NCBI GenBank assembly: GCA_016214845.1
Contig: JACRMS010000003.1
Location: forward strand, 24,110-88,109
Direction: 5' to 3'
Length of the DNA stretch: 64,000 bases
DNA from: Nitrospirota bacterium
Lineage (GTDB): Bacteria; Nitrospirota; Thermodesulfovibrionia; UBA6902
Shown here piece after piece: positions 25,159-41,994 of the stretch (the first letter of the stretch is position 1; each line of letters begins with the position of its first letter). The translations under genes were made by a program, and so were the position numbers. The notes under the pieces were generated by a model. The model was given only the letters and a program-made list of their open reading frames with translations. It was not told the DNA's origin and did no database searches.

Positions 25159-26109
25159 ATGAATGACTTTGAGCAAAAGTTAAAAGAGGCCGGATATCAT
25201 CCATTGACTGCAAGAGACATCTCCACCCTTCAGGTCAATATAGGCTACAAATGCAATTTGAGATGCAGGCACTGCCACGTGGAAGCGTCCCCTGAGAGAA
25301 AAGAGGTAATGTCTTTAAGCACTATGGCAAAGCTCCTTTATATTTTAGGAGAGAACAAAGAGATAAATGCCGTTGACATCACCGGCGGCTCACCTGAGCT
25401 CAATCCTTATTTTAAATATTTTGTAAAATCATGCGCGGATACAGGAAAGAACGTCATCGTCAGGTCAAACCTTGCAATATATTCCGAAAAAGGCCTGGAG
25501 GACATCCCCGATTTTCTTGCGGAGCAAAAAGTAAAAATAGTGGCATCACTGCCCTGCTACACTGAACAAGGCGTGGACAGCCAGAGAGGCACGGGAACAT
25601 ACAAAAAGGCCATATCCGCGTTAAAGCGCCTCAACAGCATTGGATACGGAAACGGCGCAGGGCTTGAAGTAGACATTATGTTCAACCCCGCAAAGGCTGA
25701 GATCGCGCCTGATCAACACGTATTGGAAAATGTATACAGGGGGAAGTTAAAGGAGATGCACAACGTCACATTTAATCACCTGATCGCGTTGAGCAACATG
25801 CCCATTGGAAGGCTCGGCAAGTCCTTATCGGACGAAGGCAAGAAAAAATATATAAAAGAGCTTGAAGAAAAATTTAATCCCGATACAGTGAAGAACCTCA
25901 TGTGCAGGCATCTGGTAAGCATATCTCCAGACGGCAAAATTTACGACTGTGATTTCTGGCAGATGATTAATCTGCCTGTTAAGAGCGATTGCTCGCATGT
26001 GGATAGATTCGATTACGCGGCATTGAGCAGCAGGTCAATCGTAACAACTCCGCTGTGTTTCATGTGTGCCGCAGGCTCCGGAGCAAGCTGCAGCGGGGCG
26101 CTGGCATAA
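25159..26109 (+). CDS. arsS: ArsS-like radical SAM/Cys-rich-domain protein (paralogue 1)
   Basis: Start chosen at ATG 25159 (GGAGA 6 nt upstream), which aligns with the N-terminus of paralogue 2. CX3CX2C motif in YKCNLRCRHCHVEASP. C-terminal Cys-rich tail CFMCAAGSGASCSGALA. Confidence 0.75.
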   Translation: MNDFEQKLKEAGYHPLTARDISTLQVNIGYKCNLRCRHCHVEASPERKEVMSLSTMAKLLYILGENKEINAVDITGGSPELNPYFKYFVKSCADTGKNVIVRSNLAIYSEKGLEDIPDFLAEQKVKIVASLPCYTEQGVDSQRGTGTYKKAISALKRLNSIGYGNGAGLEVDIMFNPAKAEIAPDQHVLENVYRGKLKEMHNVTFNHLIALSNMPIGRLGKSLSDEGKKKYIKELEEKFNPDTVKNLMCRHLVSISPDGKIYDCDFWQMINLPVKSDCSHVDRFDYAALSSRSIVTTPLCFMCAAGSGASCSGALA

Positions 26110-26168
26110 AAATTTTACTTTTATTTGCCTTGTTGCACAACTATCTTGACTGATGAAGGAGGTTTAAG

Positions 26169-27125
26169 ATGAATAGCTTTGATAAAAAATTAAAAGCAAC
26201 AAATAATTATCCTCTGAAGCCTGAGGGCATCTCCACCCTTCAGGTGAACATGGGATATAAATGCAATCTGACCTGCACTCATTGCCATGTTGAGGCTTCC
26301 CCTAAAAGAACTGAAGAGATGTCGTCTGCAACTGTAGATAAGATAATTGAGATATTAAGCCTGCGCAATGAGATAACCACTGTTGATATTACCGGGGGAT
26401 CTCCTGAATATAATCCAAACTATAGACGCCTCGTTAAATTCGCTACGGATATGGGCAAGAGAGTGATGGTTAGAACAAACCTTGCGATCTATTTTGAGCC
26501 GGGGATGGGAAACATCCCGGAATTTCTTGCGGAAAATAAAGTTAAGATTATTGCCTCCCTTCCCTGCTATACAAAAGAAGGTGTTGACGGTCAACGTGGA
26601 AATGGCACGTATGATAAGGCCATCTCTGCGTTAAAACGCCTTAATAAACTTGGATACGGGCAGGAAGGCACCGGCCTTGAAATCGACCTTATGTTCAACC
26701 CGGCAAAAGAAGGCATTGCGCCGGACCAGCATATGCTTGAAAATGCATACAGGGGAAAATTAAAGAAGATGCACGGCGTGACCTTCAATCATCTTATAGC
26801 GCTGAGCAATATGCCGATAGGCAGGCTTGCAAAATCTATGTCAGTGGCGGATACGGAAGATTATTTAAAACAGCTCCAGGAAAAATTCAACCCGGACACG
26901 GTTAAAAATCTCATGTGCAGGCATTTGATAAGCGTTGCGCCCAATGGGACAATTTATGACTGTGATTTCTGGCAGGCGATTAAACTATCTGTAAGAACCA
27001 GAAGTTCGGACCACATCAATGAGTTTGATTATGGCGCGCTGAAGAACAGGGACATTGTCACGGCCTCATTATGTTTTATGTGCACAGCAGGTGCAGGCGC
27101 AAGCTGCAGCGGGGCGTTGGCGTAA
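26169..27125 (+). CDS. arsS: ArsS-like radical SAM/Cys-rich-domain protein (paralogue 2)
   Basis: RBS GAAGGAGG. YKCNLTCTHCHVEASP. C-terminal CFMCTAGAGASCSGALA. Collinear with the 25159..26109 product over its full length. Confidence 0.8.
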   Translation: MNSFDKKLKATNNYPLKPEGISTLQVNMGYKCNLTCTHCHVEASPKRTEEMSSATVDKIIEILSLRNEITTVDITGGSPEYNPNYRRLVKFATDMGKRVMVRTNLAIYFEPGMGNIPEFLAENKVKIIASLPCYTKEGVDGQRGNGTYDKAISALKRLNKLGYGQEGTGLEIDLMFNPAKEGIAPDQHMLENAYRGKLKKMHGVTFNHLIALSNMPIGRLAKSMSVADTEDYLKQLQEKFNPDTVKNLMCRHLISVAPNGTIYDCDFWQAIKLSVRTRSSDHINEFDYGALKNRDIVTASLCFMCTAGAGASCSGALA

Positions 27126-27128
27126 ATT

Positions 27129-27161
27129 CAGAGCAAAGAGCAGAGATGACAGAGCACAGAC
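27129..27161. repeat. single-arm heptad repeat (AGAGCAA AGAGCAG AGATGAC AGAGCAC)
   Basis: cagagcaaagagcagagatgacagagcacagac, immediately after the stop at 27125. It is the approximate complement of the 15444/18153 word family. Confidence 0.7.
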
Positions 27162-40099: not shown

Positions 40100-40854
40100 T
40101 GATGCGGCAAGAGACACTGTTAGAGCTTGAAAATATTCATGTTCACTATAACGGGGTAAAAGCCCTCAACGGCATATCCCTGCAGTTGAACAAAGGCGAG
40201 GTTGTTGCTCTTATGGGGCCAAACGGCGCAGGCAAGTCAACGATCCTTAAAGCAGTCTTCGGTCTTGTGCCTATTGAAGCCGGTGCGGTATTTTGCCGCG
40301 GGGAAAGGATTGTCCCTCTGCCGTACAAAGTTGCAGAGCTTGGGATCGCCTTTGTCCCGCAGGGAAGACGCGTTTTCAGTCACCTGACCGTTCTGGAAAA
40401 TATGGAGATGGGCGGATTCATGTTAAGGAATAAAAAGATATTGAGAGAGCGGGTCGATGAAATGATGGAGATATTTCCGTCGCTCTCTGTTAAAAAAAAT
40501 GCAAAAGCCGGGATACTCAGCGGAGGAGAGCAGCAGATGCTCGCTATAGCAAGAGGGGTGATAATGGATCCCGGCGTGCTTTTGCTGGATGAGCCTTCGC
40601 TCGGCCTATCCCCGAAAATGGTCAAGGAGGTATTTCAAAAGATAGAGGAGATAAACAGAAAACAGAAAACTACCATAATGGTGGTAGAGCACAATATCAG
40701 AAGCGTGCTTGAAATTTCATCCAGGATTTACATCCTTGACAAGGGGAAAATTGCGTTTGAAGGCGCCTCTGCCGCCTTACTGCAAAATGGTGCGCTGACA
40801 AAGATATTTGAGGAAGTTTTTTTAGGGAAATATAACGGTCCTGAAGCAGCATAG
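40099..40854 (+). CDS. livF: ABC transporter ATP-binding protein (LivF family)
   Basis: Walker A GPNGAGKST, signature LSGGEQQMLAI, Walker B LLLDEPS. The start overlaps the livG stop. Confidence 0.85.
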   Translation: MMRQETLLELENIHVHYNGVKALNGISLQLNKGEVVALMGPNGAGKSTILKAVFGLVPIEAGAVFCRGERIVPLPYKVAELGIAFVPQGRRVFSHLTVLENMEMGGFMLRNKKILRERVDEMMEIFPSLSVKKNAKAGILSGGEQQMLAIARGVIMDPGVLLLDEPSLGLSPKMVKEVFQKIEEINRKQKTTIMVVEHNIRSVLEISSRIYILDKGKIAFEGASAALLQNGALTKIFEEVFLGKYNGPEAA

Positions 40855-40861
40855 ACAAAAA

Positions 40862-40950
40862 GCGGTCACTTTGACCCTGTAATTTTTCGTACAGGTTATT
40901 AAGGCCCGGTTTAAATGACAGGAACAATTGCATTTAGACCGGGCTTTTTT
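40862..40950 (+). promoter_or_regulatory. conserved two-hairpin leader/terminator RNA motif, copy 3
   Basis: GCGGTCACTTTGACCCTGTAatttttcgTACAGGTTATTAAGGCCCGG, then the stem CCCGGTTTAAATG/CATTTAGACCGGG, then CTTTTTT. It ends ~33 nt before ATG 40984. Confidence 0.55.
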
Positions 40951-40983
40951 GGTTAAAAATTTTTAATGAGAGGAGGTGAAAAG

Positions 40984-41994
40984 ATGAAAATCAGACAAAG
41001 AATAGGACAAATCCTGGACAAGGCCCTTGACTGGCAGGAGCTTTCACGCGAGGAGGCCCTGGAGCTGATGCGGATCGATGAGAAATCGGATGAGATGTAC
41101 GCCCTGATGTCCGCAGCGAATTCAATGACAAGAGAGAAGGTCAACAACATCGGAGAGGTTTTCGCGCAGATAGGGATAAACAACTGGCCCTGCCCCAAAA
41201 ACTGCAAGTTCTGTTTCTTTGGCGAGGCATGGGGCCTGATCAAGGAACCGATGGAATTGAGCGTTGATCAGGTGGTGTTCAGGGCAAAGGAGTTCGAGAA
41301 AGCTGGAGCGAACAACATCTTTCTGATGACCACGGCGAATTATCCATTCAAGAAATTCCTGGAGATTGGAAGGGAAGTGCGCAAGGCGATATCGCCTGAA
41401 ATGCCGCTGTCAGCCAACATCGGCGATTTCGGCCCGGCAGAGGCAAGGCAGCTTGAGGACGCGGGATTTCAGAGCGCATACCACATATACCGGATGCGCG
41501 AAGGGATAGACACCGGGATCGATCCTGAGATCAGAAAGAAGACCCTTGAGACAATAAGGGATTCCAGGCTGGCGCTTGTGTCATGCATTGAGCCAGTCGG
41601 GCCTGAACATACGGACGAAGAAATAGTGGACGAGATGTTCAGGACCCTGGGGTATAAACCTAACATGTTCTCAGTCATGATCAGGTTCCCTGTTCCCGGA
41701 ACTCCTCTCGCGGAAAAAGGGAAGGTGTCCGAGTTGAAATTCGCGAAAATAGCCGCCGTGGGCAGGCTCGTTTGCGGAGACAGGGTCAAAAATTATTCCG
41801 TTCACGGGCCGTCAACCATCGTCCTCGCTTCGGGATCGAGCGCTATAGCAGCCGAATCGGGTTCAAATCCCAGAGACACTTCCGAGGATACTTCCAAAGG
41901 TATAGGGCTTTCTGTTGAAGTTGCAAGACAAATGCTAAGAGAAGCTGACTTTGTGCCTCTCGAAGGATTTTCAAAGGTATTTAACAAAACATAA
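40984..41994 (+). CDS. radical SAM protein, BioB/HydE-like class (paralogue B)
   Basis: GAGGAGG before ATG 40984. CX3CX2C in WPCPKNCKFCFF. Collinear with the 27528..28544 product (e.g. GANNIFLMTTANYPFKKFLEIGREVRKAI vs GANAIFIMGTGHYPFGKFIEVSQEVRKAL). Confidence 0.75.
   Translation: MKIRQRIGQILDKALDWQELSREEALELMRIDEKSDEMYALMSAANSMTREKVNNIGEVFAQIGINNWPCPKNCKFCFFGEAWGLIKEPMELSVDQVVFRAKEFEKAGANNIFLMTTANYPFKKFLEIGREVRKAISPEMPLSANIGDFGPAEARQLEDAGFQSAYHIYRMREGIDTGIDPEIRKKTLETIRDSRLALVSCIEPVGPEHTDEEIVDEMFRTLGYKPNMFSVMIRFPVPGTPLAEKGKVSELKFAKIAAVGRLVCGDRVKNYSVHGPSTIVLASGSSAIAAESGSNPRDTSEDTSKGIGLSVEVARQMLREADFVPLEGFSKVFNKT

Follow-up and report, generated by a model that had tools for sequence, protein, structure and literature searches.

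On contig JACRMS010000003.1 of the Nitrospirota bacterium assembly GCA_016214845.1, a gene island combines three ArsS-type and two BioB/HydE-like radical S-adenosylmethionine (SAM) enzymes, a corrinoid protein and ferredoxin related to the mercury-methylating pair HgcAB, and a Liv-type ABC importer. We analysed a stretch of 64,000 nucleotides (positions 24,110 to 88,109 of the contig, forward strand; hereafter the window), in which the island occupies positions 25159 to 41994, and checked its gene content by listing open reading frames (ORFs) and by Pfam and NCBIfam scans. The HgcA-like and HgcB-like proteins of the window and their relatives are called HgcA' and HgcB', and the loci on contigs of relatives carry L-numbers. 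Judged by its sequence, HgcA' is a third branch of the HgcA superfamily, being neither the corrinoid iron-sulfur protein CFeSP nor canonical HgcAB nor the fused type. Contigs of related Nitrospirota-like metagenome-assembled genomes (MAGs) carry the cluster with nearly every gene conserved, which is more than chance. In the reading that we favour, to which we give slightly less than an even chance, the island would give an uncultured Nitrospirota-like lineage an organo-metalloid pathway linked to arsenic, in which corrinoid methylation is joined to radical adenosylation. It is possible that the element is instead antimony, selenium or tellurium.

The HgcA' gene (33892..34956, plus strand) encodes a corrinoid-binding domain matching PF03599, with the cap helix NVWCSAAKG, and a C-terminal membrane domain whose hydrophobic segments lie at residues 244-262, 296-314 and 333-351; an extra segment was found at residues 12-30. 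The HgcB' gene (34953..35237, plus strand) encodes a 2x[4Fe-4S] ferredoxin that has an additional TGC motif and carries CxxxxC at its C-terminus. Both proteins scored below the cutoffs of their NCBIfam models, with 159 bits for HgcA' on NF040863 (cutoff 275 bits) and 71.4 bits for HgcB' on NF040864 (cutoff 99). The model of fused HgcAB-like proteins, NF043039 (cutoff 285), gave 136 bits for HgcA' and 47 bits for HgcB', which are separate genes here. On the CdhE model (cutoff 306) HgcA' reached 52 bits, and it aligned to the CFeSP large subunit in the C-terminal corrinoid domain only. Eight members of the HgcA' clade scored 145-180 bits on the HgcA model, compared with 436 bits for the canonical HgcA of Desulfobacula. 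A neighbour-joining (NJ) tree was built for the corrinoid domain, with two CFeSP sequences as the root; in it the HgcA' family was monophyletic in 40/40 bootstraps, and the identity in this domain was 37% to canonical HgcA and 25-27% to CFeSP. The cap helix N125-V-W-C128 was invariant in 18 aligned sequences of the family, and the tail alignment of HgcB' revealed both ferredoxin motifs, the motif TGC(L/V)xxIIKEDILK and a Cys-rich tail throughout the clade. The window protein ends in PCKGSGC and not in CC, while its relatives end in CC, CGC or CCC. When one genome per GTDB species was scanned, just eight loci were at least 42% identical to HgcA', and the others were canonical hgcA at about 30%. 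The PDB sequence search returned no solved relative of HgcA beyond the CFeSP corrinoid domain.

We place HgcA' in a third branch because its scores remain below the cutoffs while its separate clade retains the hallmarks of HgcAB. The identity as CFeSP (AcsC/CdhE) was rejected on the CdhE score, the alignment of the corrinoid domain alone and the presence of the membrane domain, and that as canonical HgcAB on the sub-cutoff scores and the separate clade. The HgcA/HgcB-like pair that an earlier note on this DNA had described is thus real, but it belongs to a paralogue clade of its own. Like HgcAB, the mercury methylation system reportedly described by Parks et al. in 2013, it consists of two adjacent genes for a protein with a CFeSP-type corrinoid domain, an N-V-W-C cap-helix Cys and a multi-helix C-terminal membrane domain, and for a 2x[4Fe-4S] ferredoxin that has an additional Cys and is rich in Cys at its C-terminus; ArsR-family neighbours are frequent as well. 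It differs from HgcAB in an overall identity of about 30%, the extra N-terminal membrane helix, the motif NVWCSAAK, the CxxxxC tail, the fusion of HgcB' to a DJ-1/PfpI domain in sister genomes, and the linkage to ArsS, ArsM, ArsP and ArsC instead of standing alone. The fused HgcAB-like proteins also belong to the HgcA superfamily without being canonical HgcA, but the window genes are unfused, and HgcA' scored lower on the fused model than on the HgcA model. Pyrococcus furiosus carries such a fused protein and does not methylate Hg.

Some variation was seen around the pair in relatives. The fusion of HgcB' to DJ-1/PfpI, a family with a reactive Cys, has 290 aa and lies at 11061-11933 in L084 and at 11029-11901 in L086. 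At clade-B loci, the gene just upstream of hgcA' encodes a small SAM-methyltransferase-fold protein in L089 (Ignavibacteria MAG, 6343-6969) and a MarR regulator in L088 (6507-7004); the L089 protein did not match the NCBIfam model 'corrinoid protein-associated methyltransferase CpaM'.

The three ArsS-family paralogues are all encoded on the plus strand, paralogue 1 at 25159..26109 (its ORF opens at TTG 25051), paralogue 2 at 26169..27125 and paralogue 3 at 31358..33154. On TIGR04167, the ArsS equivalog model of NCBIfam (cutoff 300 bits), they scored 383, 394 and 373 bits, respectively, in line with the earlier assignment. Each has a Radical_SAM match and a DUF3641 match of 135-147 bits, their radical SAM motifs read CNLRCRHC, CNLTCTHC and CNLRCTHC, and a C-terminal CFxC...SC is visible. 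Pairwise identities range from 56 to 67%, the highest value being that between paralogues 1 and 2. Paralogue 3 is fused to about 270 aa with two CMD/AhpD-like repeats, as had been noticed before; the Pfam CMD match (57.6 bits) covers residues 528-595, and the two halves of the region align at 29% identity (E 4e-17). This ArsS-CMD fusion was found in just 6 sequence clusters. The PDB sequence search found no solved ArsS relative.

ArsS adenosylates trivalent dimethylated arsenic, DMAs(III), to DDMAA in a redox-neutral reaction (PMC13598754; Cheng et al. 2021, as cited in PMC12159101). The window paralogues may likewise adenosylate methylated arsenic. The cyanobacterial ArsM-ArsS arsenosugar pathway, which was reportedly described by Xue et al. 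in 2019, shares with our locus a TIGR04167-type radical SAM/DUF3641 enzyme above the equivalog cutoff and, in sister genomes of the window, ArsM genes adjoining ArsS-type genes. The differences are considerable. Here ArsS is expanded (three paralogues in the window and up to seven elsewhere) within a lineage-specific clade, one paralogue carries two fused CMD repeats, the paralogues are paired with ABC importers, a corrinoid/ferredoxin pair is present, and the hosts are anaerobic or microaerobic Nitrospirota-like bacteria, whereas those of the known pathway are phototrophs. The window also lacks ArsM, which tblastn did not find there or in L086 and L087.

Comparison with relatives revealed how far this combination is conserved. 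L087 (HgcA' 77% identical) is near-collinear with the window, from an SBP_bac_3 gene and ArsS through a beta-propeller gene to ArsR and protease genes. In L084/L085 (HgcA' 79%) and L086 (74%) the order varies but the families are the same, namely BioB-like, C_GCAxxG, SDR, ArsS-CMD, one to four copies of a 241-aa protein, HgcA' and HgcB'-DJ-1/PfpI, as well as binding proteins and permeases of the Liv type and additional copies of ArsS, and L122 has the window's families in shuffled order. In L002/L003 (Nitrospira sp. MAG, HgcA' 51%), genes for a PhnD-like binding protein, a histidine kinase and a sigma-54 regulator are followed by SBP_bac_3-ArsS-HgcA'-HgcB'. Overall, ArsS lies within 6 kb of HgcA' at 5 of the 17 paralogue loci, compared with 0 of 70 canonical hgcA loci.

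Four independent lines associate the island or its clade with arsenic through gene neighbourhood: ArsM within the arrays, ars operons, the bracketing regulatory and oxidase genes, and sigma-54 site matches. ArsM genes lie inside the ArsS arrays of L084 (362 bits) and L123 (349 bits), above the model cutoff of 263 bits. Clade members further removed from the window protein stand in classical arsenic operons. In L006 (Candidatus Auribacterota MAG, 813-5571) the gene order is arsR-hgcA'-hgcB'-ArsP_1 permease-unknown-DsbD_2-ArsC, in which arsR carries the As(III)-site motif EICVCD, ArsP_1 scores 260 bits and the thioredoxin-type ArsC matches 1JL3 with 132 bits. ArsP exports trivalent methylarsenite. 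The order arsR-X-arsP-...-arsC matches that of classical ars operons with ArsM and ArsP, but, as read from gene order, the HgcA'B' pair in L006 holds the position usual for the SAM-dependent ArsM. Further arrangements are SBF(Acr3-like)-hgcA'-hgcB'-ArsR in L010 and hgcA'-hgcB'-ArsR in L011. Canonical hgcAB has been reported to be ArsR-controlled, arsenic-responsive and co-localised with ars genes (10.1101/2022.10.17.512643), and our finding of ArsR near 21 of 70 canonical hgcA loci agrees with this co-localisation.

The island itself sits between an AioXSR-like sensor system upstream and an Aio-like operon downstream. The sensor system, on the minus strand, comprises a periplasmic binding protein of the PhnD/PtxB/ArrX/AioX superfamily (22335..23279; Pfam Phosphonate-bd 175 bits), a sensor histidine kinase (20778..22172; HAMP, HisKA, HATPase_c) and a sigma-54-dependent response regulator of NtrC/AioR-type architecture (19243..20646; Pfam Response_reg, Sigma54_activat, HTH_8). 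The binding protein is probably the oxyanion sensor partner of the kinase. Beyond them lies a gene for an SBP_bac_3 substrate-binding protein (18216..19106, minus strand; Pfam 120 bits), and 48 nt upstream of it we found a perfect consensus match to a sigma-54 -24/-12 promoter, TGGCACAGATATTGC (19154..19168, minus strand). As the first gene behind the sigma-54 promoter, SBP_bac_3 is conserved, and this family directly precedes ArsS in L002/L003 and L087. In L002, a perfect site (7819-7833) also precedes SBP_bac_3-ArsS-HgcA'B', and in L087 a site with one mismatch (920-934) precedes SBP_bac_3-ArsS. A second window site, with one mismatch (44871..44885, plus strand), precedes the cytochrome c/AioB/AioA-like operon. 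No site with up to 2 mismatches was found directly upstream of 23481 or 25159, so the sigma-54 link in the window is limited to the SBP_bac_3 gene and the Aio-like operon.

On the downstream side, the earlier note had pointed out an ArsR gene and an Aio-like oxidase, and both are present. The ArsR/SmtB-family regulator (43254..43577, plus strand) scored 52.6 bits for HTH_5 and 73.6 bits for NF033788 and is syntenic in L087. The operon, identified with NCBIfam on the plus strand, encodes a cytochrome c (45002-45412), an AioB-like Rieske subunit (45533-46066) and an AioA-like molybdopterin subunit (46067-48418). AioB-like exceeded its cutoff (TIGR02694, 130 vs 95.65 bits), and the best PDB matches of the AioA-like protein are AioA (192 bits). 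Like AioXSR/ArrXSR with aioBA, the window encodes a PhnD-superfamily periplasmic protein, a histidine kinase and a sigma-54 regulator together, a trio also found in L002/L003, and has a sigma-54-like promoter ahead of the AioB/AioA-like operon. The best promoter match, however, drives the SBP_bac_3 gene here and ArsS-HgcA'B' genes in relatives. The stretch 48576-52655, right after the AioA-like gene, encodes a Rieske protein, a cytochrome b in two parts (49039-49797, 49872-50561) and a multihaem/cytochrome c protein of 682 aa, apparently a bc-type complex co-encoded with the Aio-like oxidase.

In the pathway that we favour, the two [4Fe-4S] clusters of HgcB' would keep the corrinoid of the membrane-anchored HgcA' reduced, and its Cys-rich tail would present a thiol-bound trivalent metalloid. 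The Cys-on methyl-corrinoid of HgcA' would pass its methyl group to thiol-bound As(III), in parallel to Hg(II) methylation and with arsenic staying trivalent. Methyl- and dimethylarsenite would then be made without the SAM-dependent ArsM, which sister genomes also carry. Enzymes of the ArsS clade would add the 5'-deoxyadenosyl radical to trivalent methylated arsenic, as cyanobacterial ArsS does, and yield adenosyl-arsenicals. The SDR, the 241-aa protein and the BioB/HydE-like enzymes might tailor the products, while the CMD repeats, C_GCAxxG and DUF3795 proteins might maintain the thiol/redox state. ABC importers would bring an outside substrate to each ArsS paralogue, and the PhnD/ArrX/AioX-type sensor, the histidine kinase, the sigma-54 regulator and the ArsR-family repressor would control expression. 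As a wider proposal, which we regard as possible but on the whole doubtful, the HgcAB sister clade would be a corrinoid-dependent, ArsM-independent arsenite methyltransferase of anaerobes, feeding an expanded ArsS set that builds adenosyl and other organoarsenicals from imported precursors in Nitrospirota-like bacteria. The metal(loid)-alkylation pathway suggested in the earlier note is partly supported: the ArsS-like genes pass the equivalog model instead of falling into a characterised non-metalloid subfamily, though in a lineage-specific clade; the HgcA-like protein groups with HgcA and not with CdhE; and the gene combination recurs in several related contigs.

In the window, the complete Liv-type system described previously spans 35293-40854 on the plus strand, with two Peripla_BP_6 binding proteins that are 50% identical to each other (35293..37553), LivH/LivM-type permeases (37561-38421, 38505-39371) and LivG/LivF-type ATPases (39368-40099, 40099-40854), all assigned with Pfam. 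The solved proteins closest to the two binding proteins take branched-chain amino acids or aromatic acids and are uninformative on the ligand. L123 (1-20139) holds seven ArsS genes in 20 kb together with ArsM, as an array of ArsS/Peripla_BP_6 modules, often with two permeases. L122 (1-12773) has three ArsS, two BioB-like and four binding-protein genes, and L124 (8826-11014) a lone pair of ArsS and binding protein. These arrays of ArsS, Peripla_BP_6 and permease genes imply that each ArsS paralogue would receive a distinct imported substrate.

Between ArsS paralogue 3 and HgcA' lies the gene of the 241-aa protein (33165..33890, plus strand), the ORF of which has no family in Pfam or NCBIfam and four invariant Cys (PCxSGGR, YCxHC and C214). 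It occurs in one to four copies beside ArsS or HgcA' in L084, L086, L087 and L122. The word-indexed homology search gave 7 matches and the profile search of all representatives 813, so that the family, with its four conserved Cys, has at least 813 representatives; no informative Pfam domain was found in the 10 long members examined. Neither of two structure predictions (pLDDT 73 and pLDDT 92.4) had a significant PDB match. The best Foldseek matches of the latter model were PoxR/MopR sensor domains and Bet3 (E 0.1, TM 0.35-0.41), which gives no significant match to a V4R/Bet3-type ligand-binding fold. The metagenome profile scan recovered just distant relatives (24-41% identical), in catabolic contexts. 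Relatives at 25-32% identity in L094 (2739-15267) and L114 (1163-16741) lie with tandem SDRs, three family III CoA-transferases and an MCM-like mutase, and these clusters also contain MFS, amidohydrolase_2, old yellow enzyme, FAD oxidoreductases and a CMD-fused dehydrogenase. The recurrent partner there is the SDR.

Several observations weigh against the arsenic pathway. All arsenic links rest on gene neighbourhood, which is association and not function. In an NJ tree without the characterised Synechocystis enzyme, the ArsS paralogues of the cluster group apart from mainstream ArsS, to which they are 45-49% identical, and their substrate may therefore differ. The CMD repeats show no CxxC at the expected place in either repeat on sequence inspection, and the window ArsR-family protein has a C-terminal GCC in place of a CVC motif. 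The sensor binding protein is nearer PhnD and PtxB (72 and 66 bits in the PDB) than AioX (22-24 bits), with ArrX at 53 bits, and the AioA-like protein is below its family cutoff (TIGR02693, 309 vs 359 bits). Four of the five ArsS-HgcA' loci are near relatives (74-81% identity), so that the association amounts to about two independent lineages, and the clade-A loci L001 and L090 have no ArsS next to HgcA'. In L001, HgcA' is accompanied by an ABC system, an ExtI-like porin and a Phs/Arr-like molybdoenzyme, and L090 has ArsR together with an SBF/Acr3-like gene 5.5 kb away. Finally, the pairing of each ArsS paralogue with a Liv-type binding protein in sister genomes is not predicted by a methylate-then-adenosylate scheme, and distant relatives of the four-Cys protein occur where neither ArsS nor HgcA is present, in anaerobic catabolic clusters of an ordinary kind.

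The last two points lead to the strongest alternative, which we nevertheless consider unlikely: the island would take up and break down or salvage outside organic compounds, perhaps methylated ones or ones with heteroatoms, with ArsS acting on the ligand of the paired binding protein, HgcA' serving as a methyl acceptor (demethylase), and the SDR, four-Cys protein and CMD domains as catabolic helpers. The ArsS, Peripla_BP_6 and permease modules of sister genomes, up to seven in 20 kb, would fit this, as would binding proteins whose nearest solved relatives take amino acids or aromatic acids, and four-Cys relatives beside SDRs, family III CoA-transferases, an MCM-like mutase, old yellow enzyme and CMD. 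That anaerobes may demethylate methylarsenicals with the help of corrinoids has also been discussed (PMC10579292; 10.64898/2026.08.27.747368). The window island, however, contains no CoA-transferase, mutase or similar catabolic enzyme, and ArsM genes are embedded in the ArsS arrays. Clade members in classical ars operons with ArsP and ArsC fit production and export of methylarsenite better than catabolism, and the Cys-rich tail of HgcB' points to a thiophilic metal(loid) substrate.

In another alternative, the same machinery would handle a different soft metalloid (antimony, selenium or tellurium), the arsenic-type annotations merely reflecting shared chemistry. We judge this quite improbable. 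Handling of Sb(III) is common as well among proteins of the ArsR, Acr3, ArsM and Aio types, and TIGR04167, C_GCAxxG and ArsM-AhpD fusions are named (seleno)proteins in NCBIfam. The HgcA' of L001, as mentioned, stands with a Phs/Arr-like molybdoenzyme and an ExtI-like porin, ExtI being of a selenite/tellurite operon family, but the ExtI match of 64 bits is far under its cutoff. For the particular neighbours found, namely ArsP, ArsC, ArsM, CVC-type ArsR and an AioB above cutoff, the simplest view is that they are arsenic genes.

A divergent but functional mercury-methylating HgcAB among unrelated genes is very improbable. The cap-helix Cys, membrane domain and adjacent ferredoxin are all in place. 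The accepted hgcA cap-helix motifs are NVWCAAGK, NVWCASGK, NVWCAGGK, NIWCAAGK, NIWCAGGK and NVWCSAGK, and the consensus protocol treats NVWCSAGK, NVWCASGK and NVWCAAGK as high stringency and an HMM score of at least 100 bits as moderate stringency (PMC10087281). Clade members P0017, P0026, P0046, P0050, P0094 and P0119 do carry the listed motifs NVWCASGK, NVWCSAGK or NVWCAAGK, but the window motif NVWCSAAK is absent from that list. The sub-cutoff scores and the separate clade also contradict this explanation, and the conserved synteny with ArsS and other genes indicates that the neighbours of HgcA'B' are not incidental. Chance juxtaposition of unrelated genes, to which the terminator-like hairpins that cut the island into several units might be taken to point, has a negligible probability and was rejected, since L087 has these families in identical order, L084, L086 and L122 have them shuffled, and L002/L003 have a minimal core.

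The remaining genes of the island agree for the most part with the earlier description: all the genes that it named exist on the plus strand, and its gene starts are sensible, with ATG at 25159, 27528, 31358, 33165 and 40984 matching alignments of paralogues and orthologues. The two BioB/HydE-like radical SAM genes at the two ends of the island (27528..28544 and 40984..41994, plus strand) encode proteins that are 42% identical to each other; the first gave 39 bits for Radical_SAM and a weak 46 bits for bioB, its closest solved relative being HydE (E about 1e-3), and the second was recognised in Pfam/NCBIfam. Also on the plus strand are a DUF3795 Cys-rich protein (28547..28912; Pfam 27.8 bits), kept in L087 and L122, a C_GCAxxG_C_C putative redox-active Cys protein (28913..29335; Pfam 109 bits, TIGR01909 79 bits), and the SDR (30461..31225; adh_short_C2 223 bits), kept in L084, L086, L087 and L122. 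The gene at 29581..30411 (plus strand), formerly called porin-like, encodes a secreted protein with an orthologue in L087; only its signal peptide speaks for the porin label, and it has no membrane helix and no Pfam or NCBIfam match. Paralogue 2 is followed by a small conserved ORF of about 66 aa (MTEHRQKTLNKK...; 27146..27346, plus strand), read from the sequence, and L087 has a 63-aa gene in the same position (3528-3719). A YVTN-repeat beta-propeller protein (42150..43148, plus strand; Pfam/NCBIfam) is syntenic in L087 and L084.

As for transcription, the island is not one operon but several transcription units, and the one long operon proposed earlier is right in part only. A strong terminator-like hairpin of 19 pairs with a T-run (27457..27499, plus strand) parts the first unit from the rest, and weaker hairpins follow 29335 and 31225. 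The tight packing of 31358-40854 remains consistent with a single transcription unit. On the upstream side, the functional unit probably reaches to about 18216, including the two-component system, SBP_bac_3 and two BPD_transp_1 ABC permeases (23481-24218 and 24220-24993, plus strand; Pfam). An Rfam scan of the whole window found no cobalamin, SAM or other riboswitch and no tRNAs.

Further features were noticed in the flanks. A run of multihaem c-type cytochromes at 10830-18066, with DmsE-type decahaem-like proteins (10830-12827 and 12820-14136), MtrC/MtrF-domain proteins (14270-15346) and another multihaem cytochrome (17161-18066, minus strand), suggests extracellular or periplasmic electron transfer, and a one-mismatch sigma-54 site (14196-14210) lies within it. 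In the 676-bp gap between a protease gene and the Aio-like operon, a 104-aa secreted protein (44393-44707, minus strand) contains the internal repeat YPxGGVGNYFPLR twice. The region 55854-58567 encodes a protein with a TackOD1 domain and a degenerate GGDEF domain, beside a family 2 glycosyltransferase and an HlyD-like protein. On the downstream side, the window (59718-60176, minus strand) and L002 (14896-15357, minus strand) share a cytidylyltransferase-like gene, and the large island may therefore have expanded at a site where L002 has no more than the minimal ArsS-HgcA'B' core.

The component superfamilies, HgcAB, ArsS and the ars and aio genes, are already known. Our literature search found no published account of this cluster or of the HgcAB sister clade as such, no description of the ArsS-HgcA' association, the ArsS-CMD fusion or the ArsS-binding-protein arrays, no corrinoid arsenic methylase, and no DUF3641 biology beyond ArsS. 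The arrays, together with the confidently modelled four-Cys protein without a solved relative, are leads for radical SAM biochemistry. Metagenomic counts of mercury methylators may include proteins of the HgcA' clade, because several members carry accepted motifs and all those scored reach 145-180 bits on the NCBI HgcA model, bearing in mind that the 100-bit threshold belongs to the Hg-MATE model. Mercury methylation is not known to benefit carriers of HgcAB, and the hgcAB of the model organism responds to arsenic. A sister clade in ars operons and beside ArsS and ArsM offers a testable candidate for the native role of HgcAB-type proteins, namely corrinoid arsenic methylation. If true, this would favour arsenic over mercury as the native substrate class of the HgcAB superfamily, and anoxic sediments, soils and groundwater would have a further route to methylated and adenosylated arsenic that does without ArsM.

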